64,000 bases of DNA from Verrucomicrobiia bacterium (GCA_036490655.1 DASXDM010000016.1:83135-147134), one strand, 5' to 3'. Positions 1,985 through 22,102 are shown, numbered from the stretch's first letter. Numbers and translations are program-made. Notes: generated by a model not told the origin, from the letters alone.

Positions 1985-2008
1985 GATGTTTTTTGAAAGC
2001 GTGAAGTT

Positions 2009-2914: not shown

Positions 2915-3780
2915 AAATGCGCCTGAACATCAAAGGAAGTGAGCGCCAGGGCTCGACGGAGTGTCGCGCCGCCATCGGATTTGGCGTCGCCAGTGGTTTT
3001 ACGATGATCGAGATCGCCATCAGCCTGGCCGTGATCGGGATTGCGCTGGTGGCCATCATTGGCGTGCTGCCCATCGGCATGCGCACCCAGCAGGACAACC
3101 GGCAGGAGACCATCATCAACCAGGACGCGACCATCCTGCTGGAAGACATCCGCAACGGCGTGAGAAGCGCGGATGACCTGACGAATTACGTTTACGCCAT
3201 CACGAATTATTGGACTTTCTATAATGGCAACACGACCAACTCCGGTGTGAACGGCTATACTTTTTCGAACACATATGCCAGCCCCTCGATTCCACCATTT
3301 CCAACGTTGCAACCCCTCACCAACGGCATCAATATCATCGGCCTGTTGAGCATGCCGGAATATGAGGACAATAATGGTTACCCGATTCTCAATTGGACCA
3401 ATTCCGGTTTCAGCAATCACGTCGTTGCCTACATCTCTTCCATCAGCGGACCCGCAGTGGAAAAGCCGCCGCAACCCACCGACAGCCTGGTGCGCCAATC
3501 TGCTTTCGGTTACCGGCTGATTTGTGAAACGGTGGCGGTGCCGTTAAGCACGCCCGATGCTTCTGTGTCGTCCGCTTTACAGAATAATTTGTATGAATTG
3601 CGGTTGTTTTTCCGCTGGCCGCAGCAGCCCAGCGGCAGCCTGGGGCCGGGCGCCCAAAGTTTTCGCACGATGATCGCCGGCCGGCTGCTTAAGGATCGCC
3701 TTCAGCCAAACCTGTTTTTCTTTCAGTCGCAATCGTTCACCAATGCTGTCGTCGCGGCACAACAAGGGCCGCTACCGTAA
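2911..3780 (+). CDS. Prepilin-type pseudopilin (GspI-like by position)
   Basis: ASGFTMIEIAISLAVIGIALVAIIGVLP motif. Overlaps its neighbours (ATGA upstream, TAATG downstream). Confidence 0.75.
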   Translation: MKMRLNIKGSERQGSTECRAAIGFGVASGFTMIEIAISLAVIGIALVAIIGVLPIGMRTQQDNRQETIINQDATILLEDIRNGVRSADDLTNYVYAITNYWTFYNGNTTNSGVNGYTFSNTYASPSIPPFPTLQPLTNGINIIGLLSMPEYEDNNGYPILNWTNSGFSNHVVAYISSISGPAVEKPPQPTDSLVRQSAFGYRLICETVAVPLSTPDASVSSALQNNLYELRLFFRWPQQPSGSLGPGAQSFRTMIAGRLLKDRLQPNLFFFQSQSFTNAVVAAQQGPLP

Positions 3781-4796: not shown

Positions 4797-7700
4797 AACT
4801 GACCTTGCCGAACGCCGAACGCCGAACGCCGATTTGTAAAAAACCGGCGGCATCTGCTGCATTCATCCGTCGTTCCGAGCGCGGGATTGCGCTGATCATC
4901 ACCCTGATTTTGCTCTCGGTGACGCTGGTCATGGCGGTAGCCTTCCTGGCCATCAGCAATCGCGAACGCGCTTCGGTGACCACCACGACGGATACGGCCA
5001 ATTCGCGGTTTGCCACCGATGCCGCTCTCTCCAGCGCCGAGGCGCAGATCGTTGCCAATGCGTTGGCCGGCGGCTTCAATGCCGCGGAAACGCCCGTCGC
5101 CAACCCTTACAACTTCGGCCTGCTCGTCTCCACCAATTATTTCAACGTGAATGGTTTTAATCCCAAAGACACGACCAATGACCCGGTCAATGTGAATTAT
5201 TATTATACGAGTGATAATACCGCGTATAATCAACAGGACTTTTTGCAAAACCTGGCCAATCTCTATTACCTCCCGCGCGTGCCGTTATATGTCCCGCAAA
5301 ATGGCACGAACGATTTCCGCTTCTACCTCGACTTGAACCGCAACGGGCAATTTGAAGACAGCGGGTGGGTGCCGGTTGTGACATTGAATGCCCAGGGCAA
5401 ACCCCAAACTAATACGATCAATGGAAATACTGAGTTCACCTTCGCGATGGGTGATCCACAATGGATCGGCCTCCTCGAACATCCCGGCCAGCCTTACGGG
5501 CCGAACAATAAATTCATCGCGCGTTTTGCGTTCATCGCCGTGCCTATCGGCAGCTCACTGGATCTGAATTCGATCCATAATCAAACACAGAACCAGCCAT
5601 TAGATATAACGGAGGATGGATATTTCAGAAATCAGGGCGTGGGCACCTGGGAAATTAATCTCGCCGCCTTCCTGTCGGATTTGAACACCAACCAATGGGC
5701 TCCATTGACAGGTCCTGGTGTTTATAATTATGAGCGGCCTTTCAATGTCACCTTTCCCAATTCCGGCTATGCTTTTGCCGATGCTTTTTCATTGGTAGAT
5801 TACCGGTATTCCACCATTTATAATTCGCTGGCCTCAGCCAGCAATCTGTTCAGCCCCAACAGCCTCAACTTCACCAACTATTTTGCCATCGGAAATGTTG
5901 ACGGTTATAGCGATCTGCCATTGCAAACGAATTTTGATACGAATTATAATTATTCTATTGTTAAACAAAATGTTGCCGCGTCCTGGGCAGGTGCCGACAA
6001 TACCAATCATTTCTTCGATCTGCCTTCCGACCTCTTTGATCCTGCAAAAACACTTGACGGTGTTTCCGCTCTGGCAATCTCAGGTGGAAATGATTTCCCG
6101 GCGCGATTACTGAATGCCGGTACGAACAGTAATGCCACCTACGATCGCTATACTTTCTACCGGATGCTGTCGCAGTTGAGTACTGATTCCTCCCCCGAAA
6201 CCGGCCCGGGGAATACGGCCTTGATGAATCTGAATTACGACAACATCGATTATACCAACAATTCAGCCAGCCAGACGAATTTCATGTCCTGGACGCCCAT
6301 CGCCTTCTTCACCAATGCCGCCGACCGGATGTTGAAGATGTACACGGCGCAATGGATGACGGCTTACACCAACGTGGTCACCCCCACTTCGACCAATATC
6401 TATCCGATCTTGAACACAAATTATGTGGTCGCGTTCAACATGACCAACATCTTTGGCATCACGAACATCCCGGTCCTGGTCAGCAACCGGCTTGTTTACA
6501 CGCCTGCGGTCAATCGCGTGCTGCAACTGGCGGCCAACTTGTATGATGCCACGACGACGAATTATTATCCCTCGGTTTTCCGCCCGCTGTTTTTGGTGAC
6601 CAACCAAAACGGTTTCTACAATGTCTTCATCACCGGATATACCAATATCGCTTATGTCACTGGCACGAATGATCCGCAACTGGATCCGCCGGTGGATTTG
6701 GCGTCCATCCTTCTTCCGACGCCGGACCCGGCCATCCTTCTCGCCGGCCCAAATCTGGCGACGAATATTTACGGCATACCATGGATCATCGGCGCCAAAA
6801 AAGGATTCCCCAGCTTCAACGAATTTGTCGGGGAAAACATGGTGGGCATGACCCGGCGCTTGCAATTCGTGCGGGACGTCACTGGCGCCACCGTTAACAA
6901 AACCATCCCCATCCAGCAAACCAACCAGATGTATATGGTCAGCGTGAACACCTCGGGCGGACTGGATTTCTGGAATTCCTACACCAACCGGCTCAACGAT
7001 ATCGTGACCGTGAATTACCGTGTGGTCACTTTTCTGTCGCTCACCAATAGCGATGCGAGTGTTGCGGGCGACGCCGGCGGGCAAGTTCCCAGCCAGCCAA
7101 CGACGTTGGGATATTTCAGCTCAGGTTCCACTTCATTTTCTGCGTGGCCCAGTTCCGCGCCATGGATCGGAGGCCAGCCGAACACCAATTCATTTTATGT
7201 TCCATTGAATTTTATCGCGTTTATAAATCTGTCGAACTCGGTCTATCGCACGCCGAATGCAGGGATGACGCCGGGCGCCATGCCGCCGGGTTATCCTTAT
7301 GGGCCTCCCGCTTTAGTTTCAACAAATTATTTTGATAATGGAGCACCGATAACGGCGGTTTTTGAAAACAATCGGCCCGTCGGCCAGCCATTTTATTCTG
7401 TGCCACAATGGGGTCTGCTGTCGACGAATGCCATGCAGGTGTACATTCTGGACCGGGATTCCGGAGGAACGAACCATGTGATCGACTATGTCCATATGGA
7501 ACAGTCGGGAAGCCAAAATCTTAATAGTGAAATTTTCAGTGATGATACGAGTGGTGTTTGGAACACCAATATAAATCCAAAATACGCCATACCGTGGGGC
7601 ATCGATAATCAAATTCTAATTTCAGAAGGCTTGGTAAATGTTCAGTCAGAAGACGGTAATTGGCAGGCCGATCCGGAAGCTGCCACGTATAGCAGTTCGA

Positions 7701-9061
7701 TACCGGTACAACAGGCCGATTTTCAGGCATTTTTCCATCCGTATGGATCAGTTGTATATTTCAACGGAGTCCAGGGATCCAATTTTGAGGCAACCGCCCA
7801 GGCTCCATATGCACCGACCCGTTACGCGGTGGGGTATACCGCCCTGGAGGCCAACGATCCCTTGGTCCATTATCTGGCCAGTGATCTGTCACTTTCCTTC
7901 CAGACAAATATCCAAAATGTATACAACAACGACATCACCAATGTTCCACCGCCTGCCGCCCAGCCGTTCACGATCGGCCAATTGAATTATAATTTCCAAC
8001 CCTGGGGGGGGAATCCTTATAACAGGCTGAATTCAAATCCACAGACGTGGGCCCAAACGGAGCCAAACGCCTATGATCTCTCGGAACGGGACCCGATGAC
8101 GGTTGGACCGGATAACTGGGATTTTCCGACGAACAAACTTCCCACGATTGGCTGGATCGGTCGCGTCCATCGCGGGACGCCCTGGCAAACAGTTTATATG
8201 AAATCGCCGGACGTATTGAAGGAAGCTTTTACCGTCGGGAACACACCCTACGTCGGCCAAAATATCTGGGCGCGTTGGACAGGCGACACCACCTTCCTGC
8301 CGATCGGCCAAAGCGGCGAGTTCTTTGATGCGGTGAATTCTTCGCCCGTATGGGACCGGATGTTGTTCGACCTGTTCACGACAGGGATCAATGACAACGC
8401 CACACGCGGCCAGCTCTCTGTGAATCAATCCGCCGATCAATATGATCCGGTGGCCAATCCCACCGCCGGCCTGGCTGGCTGGTCGGCCGTATTGAGTGGC
8501 ATGGTGGTTCCACCCCCGATGGGTTCCACCAACAACTATTCGGTCATCAATCCAGCCGGTGCCTTGGGCACCAATTCTGCGCTCGGCAACCTGGTGATGA
8601 ATATCAATTCCAATCGCAATGTATTCGTTAACTTTGATGGGCTGCTCGGGAGCTTCGAGCACAAGGGCGATATCCTCTCCACGCCGGCGCTCACGTACCA
8701 ATCGCCATGGCTGAACTTGACCCAGTCGAATAACGCCGATTCTTTTAACAACGATGAAATGTACGAATGGCTGCCGCAGCAGATGATGTCGCTCGTGCGC
8801 AACACCGGCGCGCCACGCTATGTCATCTATGCCTACGGCCAGACGCTCAAGCCGGCCCCCAACGGCATTTATACCGGCAGCGCCACGCTGGCCAACGGGC
8901 AATCCGCCTTTGGCATGATCACCAATTACCAGGTCACGGCTGAATCGGCCACGCGCGCGGTCATCCGCATTGATAATCTTACGGATACCTATGGCCATCC
9001 GTTGACGAATGCGCAGCCGCATGCGGTGATTGAAAGCATTAACGTGCTGCCGCCGGATTGA
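4793..9061 (+). CDS. Giant (1,422 aa) GspK-like pseudopilin / pilus-tip protein
   Basis: N-terminus RSERGIALIITLILLSVTLVMAVAFLAISNRERA is a hydrophobic pseudopilin-type helix without Glu+5, as in GspK. It is the last gene of the translationally coupled G-H-I-J-K order. The rest is N/T/Y-rich with no motif I recognise. Start set at the ATG at 4793, not the track's 4706. Confidence 0.65.
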   Translation: MKLTLPNAERRTPICKKPAASAAFIRRSERGIALIITLILLSVTLVMAVAFLAISNRERASVTTTTDTANSRFATDAALSSAEAQIVANALAGGFNAAETPVANPYNFGLLVSTNYFNVNGFNPKDTTNDPVNVNYYYTSDNTAYNQQDFLQNLANLYYLPRVPLYVPQNGTNDFRFYLDLNRNGQFEDSGWVPVVTLNAQGKPQTNTINGNTEFTFAMGDPQWIGLLEHPGQPYGPNNKFIARFAFIAVPIGSSLDLNSIHNQTQNQPLDITEDGYFRNQGVGTWEINLAAFLSDLNTNQWAPLTGPGVYNYERPFNVTFPNSGYAFADAFSLVDYRYSTIYNSLASASNLFSPNSLNFTNYFAIGNVDGYSDLPLQTNFDTNYNYSIVKQNVAASWAGADNTNHFFDLPSDLFDPAKTLDGVSALAISGGNDFPARLLNAGTNSNATYDRYTFYRMLSQLSTDSSPETGPGNTALMNLNYDNIDYTNNSASQTNFMSWTPIAFFTNAADRMLKMYTAQWMTAYTNVVTPTSTNIYPILNTNYVVAFNMTNIFGITNIPVLVSNRLVYTPAVNRVLQLAANLYDATTTNYYPSVFRPLFLVTNQNGFYNVFITGYTNIAYVTGTNDPQLDPPVDLASILLPTPDPAILLAGPNLATNIYGIPWIIGAKKGFPSFNEFVGENMVGMTRRLQFVRDVTGATVNKTIPIQQTNQMYMVSVNTSGGLDFWNSYTNRLNDIVTVNYRVVTFLSLTNSDASVAGDAGGQVPSQPTTLGYFSSGSTSFSAWPSSAPWIGGQPNTNSFYVPLNFIAFINLSNSVYRTPNAGMTPGAMPPGYPYGPPALVSTNYFDNGAPITAVFENNRPVGQPFYSVPQWGLLSTNAMQVYILDRDSGGTNHVIDYVHMEQSGSQNLNSEIFSDDTSGVWNTNINPKYAIPWGIDNQILISEGLVNVQSEDGNWQADPEAATYSSSIPVQQADFQAFFHPYGSVVYFNGVQGSNFEATAQAPYAPTRYAVGYTALEANDPLVHYLASDLSLSFQTNIQNVYNNDITNVPPPAAQPFTIGQLNYNFQPWGGNPYNRLNSNPQTWAQTEPNAYDLSERDPMTVGPDNWDFPTNKLPTIGWIGRVHRGTPWQTVYMKSPDVLKEAFTVGNTPYVGQNIWARWTGDTTFLPIGQSGEFFDAVNSSPVWDRMLFDLFTTGINDNATRGQLSVNQSADQYDPVANPTAGLAGWSAVLSGMVVPPPMGSTNNYSVINPAGALGTNSALGNLVMNINSNRNVFVNFDGLLGSFEHKGDILSTPALTYQSPWLNLTQSNNADSFNNDEMYEWLPQQMMSLVRNTGAPRYVIYAYGQTLKPAPNGIYTGSATLANGQSAFGMITNYQVTAESATRAVIRIDNLTDTYGHPLTNAQPHAVIESINVLPPD

Positions 9062-9286: not shown

Positions 9287-12200
9287 ATGCGTTCACGAGT
9301 GAAGATGTGGATCCTGTTGAGCCTGCTGGGCATTGGCGGCGCGTGGATCTTTTGGCATATGGAAAACGGGCACATGCTGAGGGCCGGGCGGCAGAGGCCT
9401 TTGCCGGTGATGTCTTTGGCCTCCAGCGCGCCCCGGTTGACGAAAGCGTCGCTGGCGCAAAAAGCGGCGCAGTTGACGGCCTCGCGGACCAATCTCTTTG
9501 CCTACCGGCTGAACAACACGGGGAAGACCCTGGAACAATTGTTGCATGACCCGCATGCGATCCTGCTGGAGAATGCGTTGATCGATTCCCGCCGTCCGTT
9601 GGGCCTGACATTTCCGAAGTCGTTGCAGCGGCAGGGCGATCCCGGGGCGTACCTCGTGCAGGCGCGGGGGGTGGACAGCGGCGCATTTCGCGCGATGCTG
9701 GCGGCCAACGGGGCGAAGGTCATCTCTTATATCCCCAACAATGCCTACCTGGTGGAAGCTTCGGCGGGGATTGCCGGCACGGTGGCGCAAAATCCGGCCA
9801 CGCAAGCCGTGTTGCCCTACGAGCCCTATTACAAGGTCCAATCTACGCTGCTGGGCGCGGCGACGGCCCAGACCATTTTACCGCGGAACGCGATCCTGAC
9901 GCTGGGACTGTTTCCGGACAACGCGGCGCAGACTATTTCGCAGATCCAGAACCTGGGGGCGCAGATCGTTTCGGAAGACAGTTCGCCTTTTGGGCCGGTG
10001 GTGCGGGTGATGCCGCCGACGGATTGGACCGCCCTCGCCGATTTGCCCGGGGTACAGATTGTTGAGCCGTCGCATACGCGTGTTCATGCCAATGATTTGA
10101 GCCGGGTGACCACAGGAGTATCGGTGGACACCCTGGTAGCGACCAATTACCTGGACCTGAGCGGTCTGAACGTGATGGTGGACGTGAACGACTCGGGCAT
10201 CGACCAGACGCATCCGGATTTTACATTGAACGGCAATGCCGCCTCCGGGCCGAGTGGTCCCACCCGGGTGACGGGTCAATTTGCGGGGGATTTGGTGGAT
10301 ACAGACGGGCATGGGACGTTTGTGGCGGGGGAGATCGCGGGTAACGGGAGCGAAAGTCATCCTCCGGGCGGTGTGAACGTCGGGGCGGCGGCGGAAGGCT
10401 CGGTGACCAACGCGGATTTCCGGGGCAAAGCGCCGGCGGCGATGTTATTTGCGGTGGACTTTCATGGCAGCGACAGCAATTTGCAGGCGGAGGCGGCGCT
10501 GACGAACGCATTGATCTCCAACAACAGTTGGGTCTATAGCGGGGACCAGACGTACGACCTGGCAGCGGCCAGCTATGATGCGGCGACGCGCGATGCGTTG
10601 CCGTATACGCAGGGGTCGCAACCGGTGTTGTTTGTATTTGCGGCGGGCAACGACGGTTTTGGGCAGATCGGGGGCAACAACAACACGGCAGACACCATTG
10701 ATTCGCCGGGGACGGCCAAGAATGTGATCACGGTGGGCGCGTTGGAAGAGGCGCGGAACATCACGAACTATGTGACTGTGGACGGGGTTTCCAACCAGGT
10801 ATGGGCGGGGATCACGGCCAATAATTTCCAGGTGGCGGATTTTTCGAGTTGCGGGAATGTGGGGATCGGGATGGAAGGGCAGTTTGGGCGTTTCAAGCCG
10901 GACGTGGTGGCGCCGGGGACCTTTGTCGTCTCGACGCGTTCCTCGGAATGGGACACCAACGCTTATTACAACCCGACGAACTATGATGACAGCATCCTGA
11001 CGAACCTGGTGGTGGGGGCGGGCCAGCTCGAATATTTCGGCCTGTCGATCCCGCAGAATGCGATCAGTGTGGAGATCGAGGCGCTGCCCTTCAATCCGGC
11101 GAACACCCTGTGGATCTATGCCAGCGACAGTGATTTTCCGGATCCGGCCAATCCGACCTCCGCTGATTTTTCTGAAACGAACGAGGTCCTGATCCCGCCG
11201 GACAATCCGCCCAACAGCACTTCGGCGACTTATTTGAGCGAGATCCAGGCGACGGTGTTGAACTACGCGATCGTCAATTCGAATGCGCAGGATGTGGCTT
11301 ACGACCTGTTCACGCAGATCGCGACGACGAACGACAACGGCGATTATTATGATGTCCTTTCGAACATGAACGACAGCCTGGGGCCGTATTACCGGTATGA
11401 GACGGGCACGAGCATGGCGGCGGCGGATGTCTCGGGGGTACTGGCGTTGATGCAGGATTACTTCACCAACCATCTGCAACTGCAGCCCAGCCCGGCGCTG
11501 ATGAAGGCGCTGCTGCTCAACGGCGCGCGACTGAGCGATGCCGAGCTCTACAACCTGCAGGTCAACAACACGATCAATTATGAGGGCTGGGGGCTGGTCA
11601 ACCTGCCGAACACCCTGCCGCCGGATATCACGACCAACGGGTTCAACGGCGCGGTGGCCTCCTCGATCTATTTCCAGGACCAGAGCCCGACCAATGCCCT
11701 GGCGACGGGGGACCTCCACACGTACACGCTGATTGCCCAGACCAACAATGAGCCGCTGCGCCTCACGCTGGCCTGGACCGATCCGCCGGGCAACCCGGTG
11801 GCCGCCATCAAGCTGGTCAACAGCCTCCAGCTCACGGTCACCAACACGGATAACCCCACCAATATCGTGGTCTATTACGGCAACGACATCGGGGAGGCCA
11901 GCGCCTTTAACACCGCGGAAAGTCCGACGAACCCGGTGGCCCCGGACACGATCAACAACGTGCAGACCATCATCATTCCCGAGCCGCTGGGCACCAACTA
12001 TACGATCACCGTCAAAGGTTACCGGGTGAATGTCAACGCGGTGGTCGAGCAGACCAACAACATCGTGCAGGATTACGCGCTGGTCGTCAGCAGCGGCGAT
12101 GGCGACGCGACGGGTTCCTTCACGGTCGTGGACCAGGGCACCGTCTCCAATCCGGCCGGGGACCAGGACATCCTGGCCATCGGCACCACGAACGCGCCGG

Positions 12201-15200
12201 TGGACAACCAGGTCCTGGGCGCCAGTTCGCCCTTGCTGGGCACGAACACGGTTTCCGTGGGCACCAATTCCACGTGGGCTTCGTCCGGCCTGATCACCGT
12301 CGGCCAGACCAACCAATGGCACTTTTATATCGTGACGAATGAGGCGCAGGACAGCGCCGGTTCGACCGCGGATGTCACGAACGCGGCTTTTGTGACGTAC
12401 AATGCCAACACCCTGGCCCTCCCGCGCACGGGGGTGTACGCCAACAGCGAAGCGAACTCCACGCGCACGGAGGCCGATGTGGACCTTTTCGTGACCACCG
12501 ATCCGACCTTGACGAACCTGAGCGCGACGGCGCTTTCCAATTGTGTCAACGGCGCGCAGATCGGCGCCTCGGCCGGCGGCGCCTTCAACGGGGCCTCGCT
12601 GGGGCGGGGCGGAGAGGAAGTGATCGTCGACACCAATTCCCAGCACGGCGAAGTCTATTATGTCGGGGTCCAATCGGAGGACCAGATGGCCGCCGAATAT
12701 AATTACATCTCCCTCTTCACGAGCGTTCCCTTCAGCCAGATGAATAATTCCAACGGGGTGGAGACCGTCAACGGCAATCCCATCCCGGCGGCCATCCCCT
12801 CCGGCTCGCCGGCTGTCCCCGGCTTCAGCGATGTGCTGGGGATTTCCCTCCAGCCCATCCAGATCCAGGCGGTCATCGTCACCAATGTCTTCGAACAGGT
12901 GGACGCCGGCGACCTGGTCAGTTCCCTGACCCTGGACTCAGGCGTGGGCGGCCGCACCACCGCGGTGCTGATGAACCATAATTCGCCGAATGTCCCGGGA
13001 ACCTTCCCTTATGTCTATGACGACACCGGCACGGTCATTGCCAGCACTTTGCCTCCCAACTATACGCTGCATCACTCGGACGGGCCCGGGAGCCTGCTCA
13101 ATTTCGTCGGGCAAAACGTGGGGATCTTTTCCCTGTGGAACTATCACATCGCCAACAGCGTGACGCCCTTCAGCGGCAGCGTGGACACGCTTTCCCTGAC
13201 CCTTATCCCGCATGAGAACCCGCAGAAAGGCATCACCGTGAGCATTCCGCCCGGTTCATGGTATTACAACTATGTCATCGTGCCGCCGGGTTATACCAAC
13301 CTGACCGTGGCGGCAACCAATTTGATGGTGCCACCAGGATCTATCCCGCTGCAACTGTATTTGAACGACGGCAATCCGCCGACAACCAATAATTTTCTCT
13401 TCGAAGCCGGTTTGACCAATAGCCCAACGGGACTGCTGTATCCCAACGGCGCTGATCCGGGTAATTCCATCTCCTACGGGCCGCCCCTGGCGCCGGGAAC
13501 TTATTGGATCGGGATCATCAATGGAAACACCGTGGCTCAAACGGTCTATCTGATCGCCACGCTCAGTGGTTTCCAGTCCGGCATCCCGCCCACGGTCACC
13601 GCGTCCAATGGGCCGCCGTTGACCCCGGAGGCCGTGACCAGTACGAATATTTTCATCTCCTCCACCGGGGAAGTCGCCTCGGTGAACGTGGGCATCGTGG
13701 CCTCGTACCCGCGGATCTCGGACCTGACCTTCACGCTGGTCAGCCCCGAGGGCCAGGAAGTCCTGCTGATGGAAAATCGCGGCGGGATCACGACGTCCAA
13801 CGCCGGGGCCATGGAGCTCTTCTCCAACCTGGTCAATTCCACCGCCACCGGCGGGGCGGCGGCCAGTACGAACTACCTGGCGGCCAACCCGGCCGGCGGG
13901 ACGCTGCCGATCGCTTACAACTTTTACACTTTGCCCGATGAGATGACCGTTTATGACTCGACCAACCCCCTGGATTTCAACCCGAACGGCCCGTTCTGCA
14001 TCTTAGACACCGGCTTCATCAATAACCCGCCCGCCGGCCCAGGGTCGCAAAATACGCAGACCGAATACACCAATACTACTTCTGCCTATCCGCCGAATTC
14101 GCCGGGCCTGACTATCATCATGAACCAGTTCGGCAATCCCTACGCCACTGGCAACGGCGATGCCTGGACGTATACCGCCGGCTCGGCCCAGACAAATTTC
14201 GAATATCTCATGTTCACCGAGGACACGAACCTGACCGACACGCCCATCAAATTTGCCGTGCCGCCCTTCGGCTTCGACGGCGGGGCCACCAATTATTCCT
14301 TCTCGTTCGAACAGGCCACCAACGGGGATTATTTCGGGTTCACCAACATCTTCGACCCGTTCGGCGGCTGGACGCTCCCGACCAACCTCACGACCGTCAC
14401 CACGGTCTTCAACCTCGCCAGCAACCAGGACGTGACCCTCACCAACACGGTGGTCCTGACCAATAATTTTGTCACGGTCGTCACCGACCCGAATAATTCG
14501 CTGGGCGATAATTTCCAGAGCAATTACCTGGCCCTGGCCGATGGCACCATCACCCGGTCCATCCCCACTATCCCCGGCGAGCAGTACAACATCACTTTCT
14601 GGTATCGCGGACCCGGCATCGCCGGCTGGTGGCGCGGCGAAGGCAACGCCCTGGACAGCGCCAACCCGGAAAATGACGGGCAAAACGGCTCGCTCATCGG
14701 CCGGTTCGATTTCCCGGCGGGCGAGGTCGGCCAGTCCTTCGAGATGGAAGACAACGGCCAGCCTTTTGATTTCGCCGGCACGAACAGTTACGTGCAGATC
14801 CACCCGCAATACGCCTTCTCCACGGTAAGCAATGCGATCGTGGAGTCCTCCACCCTGGATGTCGGCGCCGGCGGGGAGTTCACCATCGAAGGCTGGATCA
14901 ATCCCACCAACGTCACCTTCCAGCAGCCCCTGGTCGAATGGCTCGCCGGGACGCCCACCAATTATCCCAATGTCACCGATACCAATTTCAATATCGTCGC
15001 CGGGCCGTTCCTGGATCCGGCCACCAGCCATTATTATTACCTGCTGGGCGCCACGAACTGGACCGTCTCGGAGGCCTGGGCCCAATCGCTCGGCGGCCAC
15101 CTGGCCACCGTCGACACCGCCGATGAAGAGAACTGGATCTACGACGCTTTTGAAAATTACGACGGCACCAATCGTAACCTGTGGATCGGCCTGACCAACA

Positions 15201-18200
15201 ACGGCGCCACCTTCGCCTATGCCAGCGGCCTGACCAATCTCGCTTACACCGATTGGGCCACCAACCAGCCCGATAATTGCAACGGCAACCAGTTTTATGT
15301 CGCCATCATCACCGCCACCAATGCCCAGTCCGGCTTGTGGGAGATGGCCGATACCAACGGCCGGACTTGCGTCCCGCCCTTCACCAACCTCATCTACGGC
15401 GTCGCGGAAGTGCCCGCCCTCCAGACCAACGGCGTGCAGTTCTGGATCTCGGTCACGAATATCCCCGGCACGACCAACACCATCACCAGCAGCAATGGCT
15501 GCCTCTACGCGAACCTCGTGGACATCACCAACGGCTCCCATATCATTTTTTCCGCGCCCGGCCTGGTCCAATCCAATGTCTTCCAGCACGTCGCCCTCAC
15601 GTACAGCACTAATTCAGGCATCGCCAACCTGTTCTATGACGGCACCAACGTCGCCTCCACCAATCTCGGCGTGTTCATCCCCAAAACCACCGGCGATGTG
15701 TTGCTGGGCAAAGATATGAGCCTGCTCACCAATGATTATTACGGCGGCCTCATGGATGAGATGAGCATTTATCGCCGCGCCTTGTCCGACGCGGAGATCG
15801 CCACCATCTACAGTGTCTCGGCCTCCGCCACCAACGGTCTCACCGGCAAATTTGATCCCGCCGTCACCCCCGCCGCCGGCCTGGCCGAAGCGTTCGTAGA
15901 CCTGGGCGGCTTTACCAATGTCCTCTATGGCCTGAATGATCAGTGGGACCAATTCACTTATACTTTCATCGCCACGTCCAACTCGCTGCCCTTCTCGATC
16001 TCCGGCCTCCAGCCGGGCATGCTGCTCGCCCAATTCTCGGTCGCCCAGGCCCCCATCACCAATTTCTACTATTTCCCCGAACAATCGCTGGCCGAACTCA
16101 CCGGCGATAACGCCTTCGGCAACTGGACCCTCCAGATCTGGGATAATCGCACCGACAGCCTCCTGCCCCCCGATGGCGCCCTGGATAGCTGGACGTTGCA
16201 GATGGTCCTCCAAACCAATACGCCCTCCACCCTGGACCTTGACCCCAATTCACCCCTGACTATCACCATCCCCCCAGGCCAAATCGTCCCGCTGCTCATC
16301 ACGGTCCCGGATTGGGCGTCTCAGGTGGAAAACATCGTCGATTCGGACACCGGCCCGGTGAATGTCTTTTATAATTCCTCGCAGCCCCCCACGGGTGGTG
16401 GAACAGGGGATATAGAATTCACTCCCATAAGCGTGACCGCACCGCCGATTGTTCAGGTCGGTCCTACTTTGACTGCCTTAAGCGCTCCGCCGCTACCCAC
16501 GTCGCCGACAAATTTCTATTATCTCGGCGTCCAAAACACCAATACCCACGCCGTGAACGCCACCGTGGAAGTCGATTTCAATCTCATCAACTTGACGAAC
16601 GATGTCATCTACACCGGCACCGTGGGCACCAACCAAACCGAAAATTATTTCTCGTTCACTGTCACCAACGGGTTCGAAGCCACTTTCCAATTGCTCAAGC
16701 TCAGCGGCAACGCGGACCTCGTCGTCCGCCATACCCCTCCGCTGCCAACGTTGTTCAGCTCCGATTACGCCAGCTTCAACAACAGCAACGCCGATGAAAG
16801 TATCTACGTGCTCACCAATTCGTTGCCCGTCCCCCTCACCAACGGCACCTGGTATCTCGGCGTCATCAAACGTGATGCGGGCGCCCTCAACTATTCCATC
16901 CTGGCCAAGGAATTAGCCACCAATTCCCCGCCCACTGTCCTGGTCATCCCCCTGACCAACAATGTGCCGTACACATTCACCAACGAAGACGCCGGCGCGG
17001 CCCTCACCAATTTCTTCAGTTTCCAGGTCACCAACCCCGTCGTCAACGGCGTCACCAATTATGTCTCCGGCCTGCGCTTCGAGGTCTATGACCTGAATGG
17101 CAACGGCGATCTGACCGTCCAAACCAATGTCCCGCCCTTCGCGCCGCCGTTCTACCAGCTCAGCGCCCAGCCAGGCACCGTCCCCGAATATATCCAGGTC
17201 CAGACTAATAGCACCCTGACCAACCTCGCCGCCACCTGGTTCCTGGGAGTACCGAACAATGAGACGAATCCCATCAATTTTACCATCGTCGCCGAGATCG
17301 AAACCAATGGCGCGTTCCCCGCTTTCCCCGGAGCCCAGGGCGCCGGCGCCGGTACCGCCGGCGGCGGCGGCATCGGACCGGGCTTCACCAACAATACGGT
17401 CTATCATGTCACCAGCCTGGCTGACGATGGCAGTTTCGGTACATTACGGGATGCCGTGACGCGGACCAACCGGACGATTGTTTTCGACATTTCGGGTGTG
17501 ATCTTCCTGCAAACCCCGCTGGTCATTACCAATTCCTTCCTGACTATCGCCGGCCAATCCGCCCCGGGTGGCGGTATCACCGTCGCCGGCCAAATGACCG
17601 AATTGAGCACAAACCATGACGTCATCATCAGGGATGTAAGGTTCCGCGCCGGTGGCGCTCCATTGACTGGTTTTGAGATGGCGATCGCTGGAGATTATAC
17701 CAATGGACAAATAGTCGGAACGTGGACGGTTAAATCCAATCAGGTAAGTGTCGTTACTGATGCAGTCAATGCGATGCAAAGCAGCAACTATTTGGCTTTG
17801 GCCAATGGAACCATTTCAACCAACCTGACAACGATCCCAGGGCAGACTTACGCTGTGACATTTGGTTACCGCGGACCAGACATTGCGGGATGGTGGCGCG
17901 GCGAGAGCAATTTAGTTGATAGTGTCTACGGCAATAATGGTGTAGACACCAACGGAATGGTTGCTTATTCACATGCCCAAGTAGGACTGGGATTCAATTT
18001 TAATGGAAATCCCAACCGCGTGATTGTGTCTAATGCCCCAATTTTGAACTTTGTCTCAAATCAGAATTTCTCGATGGATGTATGGATTAAAGCAATTCCA
18101 TATAGCCCGGTTGGAAATGTTGCATCAATTTTCGACAAACGGACTATAAACGGTGCTGATTGCCATGGCTATGAACTCAATCTCAGTGGTGGTTCTGTAA

Positions 18201-21200
18201 ACCTCCACTTGTCCGATAACAATAATAGTGATGGTACCGTTTGGGGCGGCCCATACTTGGCCGATTCAACTTTACATCAACTTATTGTGACGCTAATGCG
18301 AAATTCCACAACAGGCATCCGCATATATGTGGATGGTACTCTCAGAGATACATATGATGCGACCTCCGTGCCAGGTGACCTTACAACCACTGTCCCATTG
18401 CGCATAGGTAATCATTCTGATCCGACTTATACCTCATCTTGGGACGGATTGATTGATGAAGCCTCTCTTTACGACCGTGCTTTATCCGCTTCCGAAGTCA
18501 AAGCCATTTATATGGACAGTACTAACGGTAAATTTGACCCTGTTGAATTCAAAATTTCGCCATCGTTGAGCTTGGCTAAGGCTCAAATTTTGGTAAATGG
18601 TGCTACTAACCTGATTTTTTATGGAAACAATACTAATTGGCAAGTTGAGACGGCCACTTTCACAGCGACTTCCAATAAGACAGCCGTTGCTATCTCCGGC
18701 ATGGAGCCCGGCATGTTGCTGGATGCATTAAGTATTGCACCCGGTGATTCTTTACAATTTAACACTGTATCAAACGTCATTGCCGATCACATCTCCACCG
18801 AATGGAGTACCAACAATGATCTGTCTGCCTTGAATTCTACCAATGTGACGGTACAATGGTCCATCATTGCCGACAGCGTGCATAACTCTGCCACCAATGG
18901 CTATGGTTCCTTGCTCCGCAACGGGAATGGCACGTTGAGCTTTCATCACAATCTTTATGCTGACAATGCCTATGCCAGCCCGCGGCTTGGCGATAATCTC
19001 AATCTCGATTTTGAGGATAACGTTATCTACAACTGGGGTACCAACGCCGGGTATTCCATGAATGAAACCCTCACCGATGATCCGAATGGCTTCACAAACA
19101 GGATGAATTACATCTGTAATTATCTCATTGCCAGCACCAATTCCCTGACGAATACCATCGCATTCTGGGCGGGTACGACGAATACCTGGATTTACCAGAC
19201 CAACAATTTCATCCAAAGCACCAACACCTCTACCAATACTTTGACTTATTTGGCGTTAACCGGACAAAACACCGGCTGGAATATGTTCACCACCAATGCG
19301 ACAGAATTCGATCGCGAATTCCAATTCCCGCCCATCTCAGTCGATGAAGCCGATCTCGCGTACGAAAAAGTTTTGGACTTTGCCGGGCCGGACATGGCTC
19401 AACGCGATGCTGTGGATACAAATATTGTCGGGCATGTCCGCACCCAGAATGGTTCTTTCCTCACTACAGAACCCATCCTGTCACTATCGGGTTCCGTGTT
19501 TCCCAACCTCGACACCGACCAGGACGGGATTCCGGATTTTTGGGAGGACACATTTGGGAGCAATCCTTTTGTCCCAAGCCAGAACAACGTCCTGGACGGT
19601 TCGGGTTATACCGAGCTTGAAGAATACCTCAACTGGCTGGCCGGACCGCATGCCCTCACGGTCACCAATCAGCCTGTCGGAGTGGATTTGATGCAACTCT
19701 TTGGCCAGACGGGCAACTTGAGTTTCTTTGTGACCAACGCGGTCAACGGCTCGGTTTATCTGACCAACGTCCTGAATTACACCAATGTCACCGGCACCCT
19801 CTTTGCAGTGACCAACACCGGCACCTATAGCAACAGCTTTGCTATCTTCACCCCGGCAAATAATTTCAACGGCACAACCACCAATTACGGCCTGGCCTCG
19901 TTCGACGTGTATGTCACGAATAACACCACGGTGGCTTACTTCGGCCCGGTCACGGTCAGCGTCGTCGCCAGCAAAGTCGCAGTTAAAGTAAATACCAACA
20001 TACCACCGGTGATTACCTCACTTGGCTTTGGAGTTTTTGATCCTACCAACTCCGGCGGCACGGATTTTTATGGACCTTATGTGCCAGACGCCAATGCAAT
20101 TGGCATGTCGTTTGTTGTCACAAACATCAACCCGACCGGCGGGGCGGATTTAATAGTCGCATACAACCGGTTGCCGTCGCTGTCAGACTACGATTACATC
20201 AGCACCAATCCGGTCAATGAGGCAGTGGTCATCTGGACCAATTCCATGCCGGTGCCGCTGACCAATGGCAACTGGTACGTGGGGGTGGTCGATGTCAATC
20301 CCTCCGGCGGATCGGTCAGTTATGATTTCCAGGCCACGGAATATCCGACCTTGTATCGGCCGCTGTTCCTGTACCCGACCACCAATGAAGTGTTCAGCAA
20401 CATTGAAACGACGCTCTTCCAACTGCAATGCCAGGCGACCGACACCAATACGCCGCCGCTGCCGCTAACATTCAGTCTGCTGAACCAGCCGGCCAATGTG
20501 CCCGGCGCGACCAACGTCATGACCATTGATCCCAATACGGGCCTCATCAATTGGACTCCCAACGAGGCGCAAGGTCCTTCCACCAACTCCATTTCCGTCA
20601 ATGTGTCGAACGGGGCTTACAGTGACACGAACACCTTTACGGTGATCGTGTTGGAATCGAATCTGGCGCCGTTCTGGCCGACCAATGTTCCCCTCCAGAC
20701 CAATTATGTCATCAACGCCTATGACCTGCTGACGGTGATGAACACGGCCACGGATACCGATATCCCGACGAATCCCTTGTCCTATGCGATGACGGTGACG
20801 CCGGCGGCGGGCAATGTCTCCATCGACACCAACGGCATCATCACCTGGACGCCGACGCTTGCCCAGGTGGGAAGCAATTACCTGTTCACCACGATAGTGA
20901 CGGATACGAACCCGTGGGCGATCAACTCGAAGTCCTTGAGCAACACGAATTATTTCACGGTCACGGTTCTTCCGCCATTGAACTTCACCAACGGGATGCC
21001 GCAGACGAACACCGTTCCACCCGGAGGAATCAGTTGGGTGGCCGTCCCGGTGCCGACGAATGCCATTTATGCGACGAATCTCCTGATCTATGCCACCAAC
21101 CTGCAGGTGAACGTCTGGTTCAGCACCAACCTGCCGCCGACCATCACCAATCCCCATGACCAGATCATTATCCCGGATGCCACCTCCGGCGTGAGGGTGC

Positions 21201-22102
21201 TGGGCACCAACACTTCACCGGGGATCATCCCGGGCAACACGTATTTCCTGGGGGTGCAGAACACCAATCCCGTCACGATTGGCTATGCTTTGACGGTTCA
21301 TTTCGGGTATCCGGCTTCGTCCGTTCTGACCAATAGCATCCGCATCTCGAGCATCGTCCATACGAATATCAATGGGACCAACGGATTCCTGCTGACGTGG
21401 TTCGCGCCCAGCAACGATCTGTTCCAGGTGCAATGGACCGCTTCCCTGTCGCCGACCAGCTGGGCCTCGTTCACCAGTATCATCGGTTACAATACGAATG
21501 CTTTTACCAGTCCCAATAACACCCAGTTCAACTTCTTCGATGACGGTACGCAAACCGGCGGCTTCGGAACGATCCGGTTCTACCGGCTGGCCCTGTTGCA
21601 GGCGAGCACGGTGATCCTGCCGGCCCAAACCAATTTTGTCGTCCAGTTCTCCACCCCGGTCACGGTCACCAATACGGCGAGCGATTCCAATCCCAACACG
21701 ATCCTCACTTATAACCTGGTCAACCCGCCCGCCGGCGCTGCCATCGGCACCAATGGCGTCATCACCTGGGCCAATGCCCTTCCGGCCGGCCTGGCCGCGC
21801 GTTTCCTCACGGTGGCCACCGACAATGAATTGCCGCCCGCCCAGGCCACGAATCAATTCACCATCTTTGTCGCGCCGTTCCCGGCCATCACCAACGTAAG
21901 CGCCACGGCCACCAACGTCACCCTGGCCTGGCGGGCGCCGACCAATGATCAATTTCAGGTCCAATGGTCGACCAACCTGGCTTCCCCCATCACCTGGTAC
22001 CTCCTGCCCAATATCGTCACCTCCCCCAATGGCGTCTTCGCCTTCACCGATAACAATACCCTGTTGACCGAGAAATTCTACGAGTTGATCCTCCTGCCAT
22101 AG
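9287..22102 (+). CDS. 4,271-aa membrane-anchored multidomain protein: I9-like propeptides, S8 subtilase, P-domain-like, LamG x2, C-type lectin, pectate-lyase-like beta-helix, PPC-like, cadherin-like and FN3-like modules
   Basis: Single uninterrupted ORF. N-terminal anchor MWILLSLLGIGGAWIFW. Subtilase triad motifs VNDSGID / DGHGTFVAG / GTSMAAADVSG. See the domain sub-features below. Confidence 0.9.
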   Translation: MRSRVKMWILLSLLGIGGAWIFWHMENGHMLRAGRQRPLPVMSLASSAPRLTKASLAQKAAQLTASRTNLFAYRLNNTGKTLEQLLHDPHAILLENALIDSRRPLGLTFPKSLQRQGDPGAYLVQARGVDSGAFRAMLAANGAKVISYIPNNAYLVEASAGIAGTVAQNPATQAVLPYEPYYKVQSTLLGAATAQTILPRNAILTLGLFPDNAAQTISQIQNLGAQIVSEDSSPFGPVVRVMPPTDWTALADLPGVQIVEPSHTRVHANDLSRVTTGVSVDTLVATNYLDLSGLNVMVDVNDSGIDQTHPDFTLNGNAASGPSGPTRVTGQFAGDLVDTDGHGTFVAGEIAGNGSESHPPGGVNVGAAAEGSVTNADFRGKAPAAMLFAVDFHGSDSNLQAEAALTNALISNNSWVYSGDQTYDLAAASYDAATRDALPYTQGSQPVLFVFAAGNDGFGQIGGNNNTADTIDSPGTAKNVITVGALEEARNITNYVTVDGVSNQVWAGITANNFQVADFSSCGNVGIGMEGQFGRFKPDVVAPGTFVVSTRSSEWDTNAYYNPTNYDDSILTNLVVGAGQLEYFGLSIPQNAISVEIEALPFNPANTLWIYASDSDFPDPANPTSADFSETNEVLIPPDNPPNSTSATYLSEIQATVLNYAIVNSNAQDVAYDLFTQIATTNDNGDYYDVLSNMNDSLGPYYRYETGTSMAAADVSGVLALMQDYFTNHLQLQPSPALMKALLLNGARLSDAELYNLQVNNTINYEGWGLVNLPNTLPPDITTNGFNGAVASSIYFQDQSPTNALATGDLHTYTLIAQTNNEPLRLTLAWTDPPGNPVAAIKLVNSLQLTVTNTDNPTNIVVYYGNDIGEASAFNTAESPTNPVAPDTINNVQTIIIPEPLGTNYTITVKGYRVNVNAVVEQTNNIVQDYALVVSSGDGDATGSFTVVDQGTVSNPAGDQDILAIGTTNAPVDNQVLGASSPLLGTNTVSVGTNSTWASSGLITVGQTNQWHFYIVTNEAQDSAGSTADVTNAAFVTYNANTLALPRTGVYANSEANSTRTEADVDLFVTTDPTLTNLSATALSNCVNGAQIGASAGGAFNGASLGRGGEEVIVDTNSQHGEVYYVGVQSEDQMAAEYNYISLFTSVPFSQMNNSNGVETVNGNPIPAAIPSGSPAVPGFSDVLGISLQPIQIQAVIVTNVFEQVDAGDLVSSLTLDSGVGGRTTAVLMNHNSPNVPGTFPYVYDDTGTVIASTLPPNYTLHHSDGPGSLLNFVGQNVGIFSLWNYHIANSVTPFSGSVDTLSLTLIPHENPQKGITVSIPPGSWYYNYVIVPPGYTNLTVAATNLMVPPGSIPLQLYLNDGNPPTTNNFLFEAGLTNSPTGLLYPNGADPGNSISYGPPLAPGTYWIGIINGNTVAQTVYLIATLSGFQSGIPPTVTASNGPPLTPEAVTSTNIFISSTGEVASVNVGIVASYPRISDLTFTLVSPEGQEVLLMENRGGITTSNAGAMELFSNLVNSTATGGAAASTNYLAANPAGGTLPIAYNFYTLPDEMTVYDSTNPLDFNPNGPFCILDTGFINNPPAGPGSQNTQTEYTNTTSAYPPNSPGLTIIMNQFGNPYATGNGDAWTYTAGSAQTNFEYLMFTEDTNLTDTPIKFAVPPFGFDGGATNYSFSFEQATNGDYFGFTNIFDPFGGWTLPTNLTTVTTVFNLASNQDVTLTNTVVLTNNFVTVVTDPNNSLGDNFQSNYLALADGTITRSIPTIPGEQYNITFWYRGPGIAGWWRGEGNALDSANPENDGQNGSLIGRFDFPAGEVGQSFEMEDNGQPFDFAGTNSYVQIHPQYAFSTVSNAIVESSTLDVGAGGEFTIEGWINPTNVTFQQPLVEWLAGTPTNYPNVTDTNFNIVAGPFLDPATSHYYYLLGATNWTVSEAWAQSLGGHLATVDTADEENWIYDAFENYDGTNRNLWIGLTNNGATFAYASGLTNLAYTDWATNQPDNCNGNQFYVAIITATNAQSGLWEMADTNGRTCVPPFTNLIYGVAEVPALQTNGVQFWISVTNIPGTTNTITSSNGCLYANLVDITNGSHIIFSAPGLVQSNVFQHVALTYSTNSGIANLFYDGTNVASTNLGVFIPKTTGDVLLGKDMSLLTNDYYGGLMDEMSIYRRALSDAEIATIYSVSASATNGLTGKFDPAVTPAAGLAEAFVDLGGFTNVLYGLNDQWDQFTYTFIATSNSLPFSISGLQPGMLLAQFSVAQAPITNFYYFPEQSLAELTGDNAFGNWTLQIWDNRTDSLLPPDGALDSWTLQMVLQTNTPSTLDLDPNSPLTITIPPGQIVPLLITVPDWASQVENIVDSDTGPVNVFYNSSQPPTGGGTGDIEFTPISVTAPPIVQVGPTLTALSAPPLPTSPTNFYYLGVQNTNTHAVNATVEVDFNLINLTNDVIYTGTVGTNQTENYFSFTVTNGFEATFQLLKLSGNADLVVRHTPPLPTLFSSDYASFNNSNADESIYVLTNSLPVPLTNGTWYLGVIKRDAGALNYSILAKELATNSPPTVLVIPLTNNVPYTFTNEDAGAALTNFFSFQVTNPVVNGVTNYVSGLRFEVYDLNGNGDLTVQTNVPPFAPPFYQLSAQPGTVPEYIQVQTNSTLTNLAATWFLGVPNNETNPINFTIVAEIETNGAFPAFPGAQGAGAGTAGGGGIGPGFTNNTVYHVTSLADDGSFGTLRDAVTRTNRTIVFDISGVIFLQTPLVITNSFLTIAGQSAPGGGITVAGQMTELSTNHDVIIRDVRFRAGGAPLTGFEMAIAGDYTNGQIVGTWTVKSNQVSVVTDAVNAMQSSNYLALANGTISTNLTTIPGQTYAVTFGYRGPDIAGWWRGESNLVDSVYGNNGVDTNGMVAYSHAQVGLGFNFNGNPNRVIVSNAPILNFVSNQNFSMDVWIKAIPYSPVGNVASIFDKRTINGADCHGYELNLSGGSVNLHLSDNNNSDGTVWGGPYLADSTLHQLIVTLMRNSTTGIRIYVDGTLRDTYDATSVPGDLTTTVPLRIGNHSDPTYTSSWDGLIDEASLYDRALSASEVKAIYMDSTNGKFDPVEFKISPSLSLAKAQILVNGATNLIFYGNNTNWQVETATFTATSNKTAVAISGMEPGMLLDALSIAPGDSLQFNTVSNVIADHISTEWSTNNDLSALNSTNVTVQWSIIADSVHNSATNGYGSLLRNGNGTLSFHHNLYADNAYASPRLGDNLNLDFEDNVIYNWGTNAGYSMNETLTDDPNGFTNRMNYICNYLIASTNSLTNTIAFWAGTTNTWIYQTNNFIQSTNTSTNTLTYLALTGQNTGWNMFTTNATEFDREFQFPPISVDEADLAYEKVLDFAGPDMAQRDAVDTNIVGHVRTQNGSFLTTEPILSLSGSVFPNLDTDQDGIPDFWEDTFGSNPFVPSQNNVLDGSGYTELEEYLNWLAGPHALTVTNQPVGVDLMQLFGQTGNLSFFVTNAVNGSVYLTNVLNYTNVTGTLFAVTNTGTYSNSFAIFTPANNFNGTTTNYGLASFDVYVTNNTTVAYFGPVTVSVVASKVAVKVNTNIPPVITSLGFGVFDPTNSGGTDFYGPYVPDANAIGMSFVVTNINPTGGADLIVAYNRLPSLSDYDYISTNPVNEAVVIWTNSMPVPLTNGNWYVGVVDVNPSGGSVSYDFQATEYPTLYRPLFLYPTTNEVFSNIETTLFQLQCQATDTNTPPLPLTFSLLNQPANVPGATNVMTIDPNTGLINWTPNEAQGPSTNSISVNVSNGAYSDTNTFTVIVLESNLAPFWPTNVPLQTNYVINAYDLLTVMNTATDTDIPTNPLSYAMTVTPAAGNVSIDTNGIITWTPTLAQVGSNYLFTTIVTDTNPWAINSKSLSNTNYFTVTVLPPLNFTNGMPQTNTVPPGGISWVAVPVPTNAIYATNLLIYATNLQVNVWFSTNLPPTITNPHDQIIIPDATSGVRVLGTNTSPGIIPGNTYFLGVQNTNPVTIGYALTVHFGYPASSVLTNSIRISSIVHTNINGTNGFLLTWFAPSNDLFQVQWTASLSPTSWASFTSIIGYNTNAFTSPNNTQFNFFDDGTQTGGFGTIRFYRLALLQASTVILPAQTNFVVQFSTPVTVTNTASDSNPNTILTYNLVNPPAGAAIGTNGVITWANALPAGLAARFLTVATDNELPPAQATNQFTIFVAPFPAITNVSATATNVTLAWRAPTNDQFQVQWSTNLASPITWYLLPNIVTSPNGVFAFTDNNTLLTEKFYELILLP
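10130..11620 (+). other. Peptidase S8 (subtilisin-like) catalytic domain of the giant protein
   Basis: Asp codon 10190-10192 (DSG), His 10310-10312 (HGT), oxyanion NNSW near 10520, Ser 11411-11413 (GTSMA). Followed by LRLTLAWTDPPG...NNVQTIIIP, a beta-sandwich typical of large bacterial subtilases. Confidence 0.85.
14625..15815 (+). other. LamG/concanavalin-like domain 1, interrupted by a C-type lectin
   Basis: GWWRGEGNALD...GQSFEMEDNG...FTIEGWINP ... HVALTYSTNSGIANLFYDGT...GGLMDEMSIYRRALSDAEIATIY. Confidence 0.6.
15029..15412 (+). other. C-type lectin-like domain nested inside LamG 1
   Basis: HYYYLLGATNWTVSEAWAQSLGGHLATVDTADEENWIYDAF...NLWIGLTNN...YTDWATNQPDN...GLWEMADTNGRTCVP matches the CTLD pattern (W-x-x-A-x-x-C/L-x-x-x-G-G-H-L-A-x-I, WIGL, W...P.N). 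Confidence 0.6.
17383..19470 (+). other. Pectate-lyase-like right-handed beta-helix, split by an inserted ~1-kb sandwich+LamG module (17735-18740)
   Basis: N part: NNTVYHVTSLADDGSFGTLRDAVTRTNRTIVFDISGVIFLQTPLVITNSFLTIAGQSAPGGGITVAG. C part: ADHISTEWSTNNDLS...VTVQWSIIADS...LSFHHNLYADNAYASPRLG...DFEDNVIYNWG...AYEKVLDFAGP..QRDAVDTNIVGHV. Confidence 0.55.
17888..18515 (+). other. LamG/concanavalin-like domain 2
   Basis: GWWRGESNLVD...VGLGFNFNGNPNRVIV...FSMDVWIKA...LHQLIVTLMRNSTTGIRIYVDGT...WDGLIDEASLYDRALSASEVKAIY. Confidence 0.6.
20440..20985 (+). other. Two cadherin-like/putative-Ig repeats
   Basis: LTFSLLNQPANVPGATNVMTIDPNTGLINWTPNEAQGPSTNSISVNVSNG and LSYAMTVTPAAGNVSIDTNGIITWTPTLAQVGSNYLFTTIVTD. 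A third copy lies near 21690-21870. Confidence 0.5.

Follow-up and report, generated by a model that had tools for sequence, protein, structure and literature searches.

The window analysed here is a 64,000-nucleotide stretch from a Verrucomicrobiia bacterium (GCA_036490655.1 DASXDM010000016.1:83135-147134), and it carries a giant open reading frame (ORF) whose 4271-residue product contains two nests of domains inserted into other domains. A Pfam scan of the whole protein detects four families above or near threshold: Peptidase_S8 at the N-terminus (E 2e-32), half of a proprotein-convertase P-domain, Laminin_G_3 in two matched stretches (the best at residues 2921–3072), and a weak C-type lectin. 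The S8 peptidase is itself matched in two stretches at window positions 10190-11413. Profile searches resolve the following elements, which form nest A (residues 1464–2311) and nest B (residues 2679–3456).

9287..22102, + strand: giant ORF, 4271 residues; N-terminal hydrophobic segment, S8 peptidase, then nested modules
13676..13822, + strand: P-domain N-terminal half, outermost host of nest A; residues 1464–1512; Pfam P_proprotein positions 2–50 of 86
13823..14365, + strand: ~180 residues of unknown fold, part of the insert; residues 1513–1693, after the P-domain N-half and before sandwich 1
14366..14626, + strand: DUF642-like jelly roll 1, N-half; residues 1694–1780; NYLALADGTI...FWYRGP; BLASTP to module 2, E 1e-20
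14627..14956, + strand: LamG 1, N-part; residues 1781–1890; LamG profile positions 1–82, E 1.1e-16
14957..15418, + strand: C-type lectin-like domain within LamG 1, innermost level; residues 1891–2044 (154 residues); Pfam match at residues 1923–2019
15419..15847, + strand: LamG 1, C-part; residues 2045–2187; LamG profile positions 83–206 at residues 2045–2176, E 3.1e-34; Pfam Laminin_G_3, E 2e-16
15848..16042, + strand: DUF642-like jelly roll 1, C-half; residues 2188–2252; KFDP...ISGLQPGMLL; BLASTP to module 2, E 2e-22; DUF642-type profile positions 119–158
16088..16219, + strand: P-domain C-half; residues ~2268–2311; GNWTLQIWD...LDSWTLQMVL; Pfam P_proprotein positions 52–85, E 0.0026 alone
17321..17671, + strand: PL1_2-like parallel beta-helix, N-part; residues 2679–2795, ending ...VIIRDVRFRAGG; helix profile positions 1–147, E 7.5e-50
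17672..17890, + strand: DUF642-like jelly roll 2, N-half; residues 2796–2868; DUF642-type profile positions 10–85 at residues 2795–2862, E 1.7e-11
17891..18532, + strand: LamG 2, contiguous; residues 2869–3082; LamG profile positions 1–212, E 4e-49
18533..18739, + strand: DUF642-like jelly roll 2, C-half; residues 3083–3151; DUF642-type profile positions 99–159 at residues 3101–3151, E 2.9e-8
18740..19654, + strand: PL1_2-like beta-helix, C-part with helical tail; residues 3152–3456, beginning PGD3154SLQF; helix profile positions 108–350, E 9e-108

Split domains in nests A and B

Each nest contains one of two similar modules, module 1 at residues ~1694–2252 and module 2 at residues ~2796–3151. 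An earlier reading of this DNA from the sequence alone (the sequence-only reading) had described a split beta-sandwich module that occurs twice with a LamG domain in a loop of each copy, and had proposed pairwise alignment of the modules and profile-based boundary mapping as checks. Every motif quoted in that reading was located, including NYLALA at residues 1746 and 2834 and GKFDP at residues 2192 and 3086, and the alignment returned two collinear significant BLASTP segments (E 2e-22 and 1e-20), between which module 1 has ~190 additional residues. The similarity of the two modules is far beyond chance, and on this alignment they are homologous. The boundaries move slightly: the N-halves of the sandwiches begin ~20–30 residues earlier than had been proposed (residues ~1694 and ~2796), and the beta-helix of nest B extends to residue ~3456 (...EEYLNWLAGPHA), ending at nucleotide ~19654 and not at 19470.

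For boundary mapping, profiles were built from uninterrupted domains of homologues and then searched against the giant protein. The LamG profile comprises 92 contiguous homologue LamG domains (212 positions), the DUF642-type profile 31 intact loop-insert domains of homologues (three sampled domains pass the Pfam DUF642 cut-off with 29.9–36.7 bits), and the beta-helix profile 40 homologues with an uninterrupted domain. In four host families, consecutive profile coordinates flank each insert, giving the A1-B1-C-B2-A2 pattern as defined in PMC13114784 and not a linear domain order. The proposal of three levels, twice, is borne out by these coordinates, and nest A proves deeper than proposed.

In nest B, a PL1 subfamily-2-like parallel beta-helix acts as host, and its profile matches residues 2679–2832 with positions 1–147 and residues 3152–3398 with positions 108–350. 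The spliced helix aligns to PDB 9buj (PfPL1, a PL1 subfamily-2 lyase) with E 7e-31 and 111 bits, and this alignment crosses the junction. NCBIfam PelZ also matches the helix with E 1.8e-20, but at 73 bits versus an equivalog cut-off of 840, and a Pfam scan of the spliced helix matched no lyase family and no other family. The helix profile halves and the 9buj match across the junction uphold the suggestion that copy 2 interrupts a pectate-lyase-like beta-helix. The insert is a 356-residue composite of a jelly roll with LamG, and nest B thus comprises three levels.

In both modules, the LamG domain splits a DUF642-like jelly roll and replaces a short loop after ...FxYRGP. Both LamG domains pass the Laminin_G_3 threshold (PF13385, 27.6 bits), module 2 with 73.7 bits and module 1 with 60.8 bits in two stretches. 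The jelly-roll halves are more divergent from Pfam: spliced sandwich 2 reaches 21.1 bits (E 2.8e-4), below the threshold of DUF642, a galactose-binding-like jelly roll (PF04862, 27 bits), and spliced sandwich 1 gave no DUF642 match in the Pfam scan. The N-half of jelly roll 1 matches DUF642-type profile positions 63–84 at residues 1752–1773, more weakly than module 2. By comparison, an hhalign alignment of 149 spliced N- plus C-halves of the sandwich to the 31 intact loop inserts gives a probability of 99.6% (E 5.6e-24, 130 columns) and runs through the splice.

In nest A, the outermost host is a P-domain. Its N-half scores 32.8 bits in the whole-protein scan (P_proprotein, PF01483, threshold 21 bits), and splicing residues 1445–1522 to residues 2256–2320 yields a single P_proprotein match covering positions 2–85 of 86 with 44.8 bits (E 1.3e-11). 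The P-domain is therefore split around module 1, which makes nest A four levels deep: P-domain, jelly roll, LamG and C-type lectin. The distance between the P-domain halves is 675–761 residues in 115 of 116 homologues; nest A is old and retained in essentially all homologues. Residues 1513–1693, which matched no Pfam family, are kept in homologues and in small proteins with the same composite, with a ratio of nonsynonymous to synonymous substitution rates (dN/dS) of 0.12.

At the innermost level of nest A, LamG 1 breaks exactly between profile positions 82 and 83, and the intervening stretch matches Lectin_C (PF00059, cut-off 22.6 bits) with 28.9 bits alone, 25.2 bits within the module and 19.7 bits within the whole protein. 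The break and the Lectin_C match confirm the proposed C-type lectin inside the LamG of copy 1, and a C-type lectin-like domain lies at the same place in almost all homologues. Reading the domain by eye against the Ca2+/sugar-binding motifs (EPN/QPD and WND) reveals a QPD (NQPDNC, window ~15260-15280, residues ~1993–1997) and no clear WND. In animal C-type lectins, QPD is the motif of the galactose type.

The giant relatives in a large protein collection number at least 186, with 2300–5600 residues each and nearly all named Verrucomicrobia by their sources, and a search of genome contigs found six related loci. The closest, L001, comes from an uncultured Verrucomicrobiae metagenome-assembled genome (MAG) and shares the architecture of the giant gene, which over its full length is ~83% identical in amino acids and ~81% in nucleotides. 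Compared with this orthologue, all half-domains are under purifying selection (dN/dS 0.07–0.25), and none resembles a decaying remnant. L001 itself has an in-frame TAG (L001:10059-10286) where the window has Gln2769, and a reading-frame break (L001 ~9948-10059) around residues 2681–2720 in the helix N-part; the remainder of the L001 gene has a dN/dS of ~0.14. The stop and the frame break are either sequencing errors or signs of a recently broken gene.

AlphaFold2 models of both nests are of low confidence: residues 2680–3458 (nest B, 16-row alignment) have a mean predicted local distance difference test (pLDDT) score of 45.6, with only the insert reaching 65–84, and residues 1700–2274 (nest A, 14-row alignment) have a mean of 31.4. 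In a Foldseek search with the nest B model, the LamG 2 part matches generic ConA/LamG-like jelly rolls; at the top of the ranking stand chains from clostridial neurotoxins and from their NTNH partners, namely the N-terminal subdomains of the receptor-binding part. The resemblance goes no further than fold class and has no bearing on toxicity or on the split sandwich. The models do not show reassembled folds, and together with the spliced sandwich 2 score below the DUF642 cut-off (21.1 versus 27 bits) this would suit a linear order, in which the halves are decayed remnants or independent small domains flanking complete LamG and lectin domains and do not reassemble. Such an arrangement is nevertheless highly improbable, since in four families the two halves cover complementary, consecutive stretches of the profile, close homologues have an uninterrupted helix, jelly roll and LamG, and all halves are under purifying selection and kept in more than 100 homologues. 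From the profiles and the uninterrupted relatives, the split folds would be expected to reassemble in three dimensions.

The helix loop and its inserts

Among the 120 best matches to this region, 111 homologues could be classified by the distance between the two helix parts, and the helix loop that holds module 2 in the window is an insertion hot spot that takes several states among them, with DUF642 and NHL assignments from Pfam.

Empty (loop of 4–14 residues), insert ~0 residues: 40 of 111 homologues
Plain DUF642 domain, ~170 residues: 31 of 111
Jelly roll with LamG, the state of the window, ~365 residues: 21 of 111
NHL-repeat beta-propeller, ~255 residues: 10 of 111
DUF642 followed by jelly roll with LamG, ~540 residues: 7 of 111
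Longer NHL array, 511 residues: 1 of 111
Insert of 206 residues with no significant Pfam family: 1 of 111

The insert junction is identical in all classes and lies between ...VIIRDVRFR and (G)DSLQF. By rough count, the loop state changes at least 43 times on a tree of module 1 and at least 35 times on a tree of the helix C-part (111 proteins), compared with ~60 for shuffled labels. Four pairs of proteins (P0007/P0013, P0005/P0010, P0023/P0058 and P0044/P0057) are nearly identical in module 1 yet differ in loop state. In addition, one genomic context holds three loop states, jelly roll with LamG in the window, DUF642 in L007 and NHL in L008. A second PL1-like helix, uninterrupted, lies ~1300 residues downstream of the first in P0004, P0005, P0008, P0010 and P0025.

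Codon usage also differs in the insert. The G+C fraction at third codon positions (GC3) is 0.48 in the N-half of jelly roll 2, 0.40 in LamG 2 and 0.45 in the C-half of jelly roll 2; outside the insert, most of the gene has 0.75–0.82, and the helix has 0.69 in its N-part and 0.59 in its C-part. The G+C fraction at the first two codon positions (GC1+2) is roughly flat at 0.43–0.51, except for 0.57 in the helix N-part. Amino-acid composition was rejected as the cause of the dip because GC1+2 is flat while GC3 falls. L001 shares the dip (0.54 versus 0.79 and 0.69), and the insert also has the lowest GC3 among the compared segments in L003, L007 (DUF642 insert) and L008 (NHL insert). The drop in GC3 is consistent with acquisition or exchange of cassettes from lower-GC sources, and in the lineage of the window such acquisition would predate the split from L001.

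The abrupt fall of GC3 at the insert, in a source that is a metagenome-type assembly of 40 contigs, could instead reflect an assembly or binning artefact, in which the low-GC stretch of module 2 is a chimeric join of another organism's reads. We give this explanation almost no credence: the independent MAG L001 has the same architecture at ~81% nucleotide identity along the whole gene and shows the same dip, an identical protein (P0002) is recorded on three contigs, 21 further homologues carry the same insert at the same junction, and the reading frame is intact.

The composite of jelly roll and LamG is also found in other proteins. A search with module 2 of 1.84 billion representative proteins yields 581 proteins at E <= 1e-30, and the whole 356-residue composite is matched end to end in ~30 of the best 150 representatives, in proteins of 441–3560 residues. 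Several small proteins (P0223 and P0264) contain, in order, the P-domain N-half, the unknown region, the jelly-roll N-half, LamG, the jelly-roll C-half and the P-domain C-half. Two separate LamG insertions for modules 1 and 2 were considered and rejected, since the composite is widespread as a unit. From this distribution of sequences, the two sandwich-plus-LamG copies are best read as copies of a pre-existing composite, which evidently moves as a unit. A further sandwich-plus-LamG copy that could have served as donor was not found in the window's own genome. The lectin domain joined copy 1 at a later stage, and the composite occurs without it in a few homologues (P0048, P0091 and P0027). In P0049, P0082 and P0110, whose helix loop is empty, a LamG holding a C-type lectin directly follows the helix C-part, so that the LamG/lectin nest also exists outside the jelly roll.

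Directly upstream of the giant gene lies a group of genes that includes pseudopilins.

225..9061, + strand: five pseudopilin-type genes and a 1451-residue gene; Pfam N_methyl (N-terminal methylation motif) in five ORFs

The gene order T2SSF / CopG-like / pseudopilins / ~1400-residue gene / giant gene / uvrA is common to the window, L007 and L008. The 1451-residue gene (window 4706-9061), which follows the pseudopilin genes and precedes the giant gene, matched no Pfam family; its position and size (1360–1370 residues) are kept in L007 and L008. An FkbM-type methyltransferase gene (window 22176-23204, Pfam E 1.8e-16) of low G+C (0.39–0.49) lies between the giant gene and uvrA in the window and is not at that place in L007 and L008, in which uvrA directly follows the giant gene.

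A beta-helix without its catalytic arginine

The alignment with PfPL1 bears on whether the helix is an enzyme. Arg220 of PfPL1, the Arg that opens the RTPR motif of the printed construct, has Arg218 as its counterpart in PelC. In our alignment, this position is Ala3230 in the window's protein, and among the 111 homologues it is Gly in 60, Ala in 48, Asp in 2 and Arg in 1. PfPL1 Arg220 has been assigned as the Bronsted base that abstracts the C5 proton (PMC11229556). Furthermore, Arg228 of PfPL1 is replaced by Asn in 108 of 111 homologues, and the Lys-containing HPKGHH loop is deleted in ~100 of 111. By comparison, 92 of 111 homologues retain the GDS-motif Asp, and 78 of 111 retain Arg223. Asp3154 probably corresponds to the groove Asp of PL1 enzymes because of the shared GDxx...DH motif, which would place the exit of the insert two residues before it.

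The sequence-only reading had suggested modular shuffling of carbohydrate-binding units into a catalytic scaffold. Shuffling holds at the helix loop, with at least five insert states, many changes and atypical GC3, whereas the catalytic scaffold is doubtful because the catalytic Arg is lost, in the window's protein as in nearly the whole family. An active pectate or polysaccharide lyase, in which carbohydrate-binding modules by the active site target the enzyme to its substrate, would account for the clear homology to a characterised PL1_2 lyase and PelZ, the retention of the GDS Asp and Arg223 in most homologues, the strong purifying selection on the helix (dN/dS 0.08–0.12) and the sugar-binding fold classes of the inserted domains. 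We consider it unlikely in view of the Gly or Ala at the Arg220 position in 108 of 111 homologues, the equally frequent Asn for Arg228, the deleted HPKGHH loop and the lack of any Pfam lyase match even for the spliced domain. The helix would rather serve as a rigid non-catalytic scaffold or as a binding groove.

We consider it probable that the product of the giant gene is exported or lies at the cell surface, and that in it lectin-type beta-sandwiches are displayed on the loops of other domains through repeated in-frame insertion, with the helix loop acting as a cassette site on a non-catalytic scaffold. At the helix loop the inserts would be exchanged by recombination through the conserved helix sequence. 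The variability of the loop, the dozens of changes in its state and a GC3 lower than that of the flanks fit such an exchange. A swappable insert beside the groove Asp would set ligand specificity, the nested domains may bind glycans, and the neighbouring pseudopilus system would export the protein.

Several points weigh against this interpretation. The homologues are the 120 best matches to the region and no random sample, and the change counts come from FastTree trees of single regions of a probably recombining protein. The GC3 dips in L003 and L007 are small, and the insert-free homologue P0038 (L009) lies in a different genomic context, which indicates that the family is not all at one locus. 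In the lectin domain, the QPD-type motif is not conserved, as the homologue consensus is QPx with a variable third position. Both AlphaFold2 models are of low confidence and do not show reassembled folds. With respect to catalysis, one Arg has been lost, leaving room for another catalytic base or another activity; PMC11229556 also names a second Arg, the one that neutralises the carboxylate, as Arg235, with an uncertain place in the printed PfPL1 construct.

Comparison with known systems

Domain nesting as such is already known. In a catalogue based on ECOD and AlphaFold, insertions occur in ~20% of multidomain proteins, and the deepest nest, that of cyanobacterial RNA polymerase, has six levels (PMC13114784); the description of the present nesting as unusual was accordingly overstated. 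As in those nests, an inserted domain here itself hosts a further insert, the domains belong to different fold groups, and the inserts are mostly smaller than their hosts, with the exception of LamG, which is larger than its host jelly roll. The present nests differ in that they consist of lectin-type beta-sandwiches in an extracellular giant protein and in that one nest is duplicated as a unit. In addition, one host loop carries alternative inserts among close relatives, a population-level polymorphism rather than a fixed lineage-specific insert.

PfPL1 (9buj) shares with the helix of nest B the parallel beta-helix family and the GDS, DH and HHN-type motifs; both also end in a helical tail that bears a D-x-D-x-DG-type motif. 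The obvious differences occur in the loop, which has ~8 residues in PfPL1 and a 356-residue two-level insert here, and in the groove, where Ala replaces Arg220, Asn replaces Arg228 and the HPKGHH loop is gone. PfPL1 is a free-standing enzyme of ~460 residues, whereas the present helix is embedded in 4271. The SusG alpha-amylase, reportedly an active enzyme with CBM58 as a single-level insert within its catalytic domain, is similar in that a glycan-processing fold carries a carbohydrate-binding-type module on one of its loops, by the substrate groove. Unlike SusG, the host here lacks the catalytic base, and its insert is two-level and exchangeable. A literature search for inserted domains in pectate lyases found none.

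Giant proteins of Omnitrophota (>30,000 residues), some with an N-terminal S8 peptidase, are described as encoded next to type II secretion-like loci (bioRxiv 10.1101/2023.11.21.568195). Both systems belong to the PVC (Planctomycetes–Verrucomicrobia–Chlamydiae) superphylum and place giant genes after genes of type II secretion system-like or pseudopilin type. The Omnitrophota proteins are far larger, the likeness drawn here is one of description, and nested lectin modules or a pseudo-lyase hot spot did not turn up in the passages of that work that were searched.

As far as we have found, three things are new: this particular lectin nest of four levels, the movement of that nest as a unit, and the polymorphic loop in the pseudo-lyase helix of a protein from a pseudopilin operon. 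The giant protein is a natural example of recursive domain insertion, well documented and reaching four levels in one nest and three in the other, in which whole nests act as mobile units. Relatives show the intermediate stages, namely a loop that lacks any insert, the jelly roll by itself, the jelly roll holding LamG, and LamG both with the lectin and lacking it, and the order of assembly is therefore open to study rather than guesswork. One beta-helix loop accommodates anything from no insert to ~550 residues, drawn from several fold classes, a tolerance that is useful for domain-insertion engineering. The case also bears on annotation, as routine domain scans overlook the helix entirely, interrupted as it is by the insert, and detect only half of the P-domain. 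The giant gene closes a conserved pseudopilin operon, and its variable insert is a candidate determinant of what the apparatus binds.

A bolder proposal, which we advance only tentatively, is that the loop of the catalytically dead helix is a dedicated cassette site that determines which ligand or prey is recognised by a giant adhesin, exported by the pseudopilus in Verrucomicrobia, and that its heads (DUF642, DUF642 with LamG, and the NHL propeller) are swapped horizontally between species via the helix flanks. If this is true, the helix-loop cassette site would be a cellular counterpart of the phage tailspikes, which are also beta-helices and swap receptor-binding modules.

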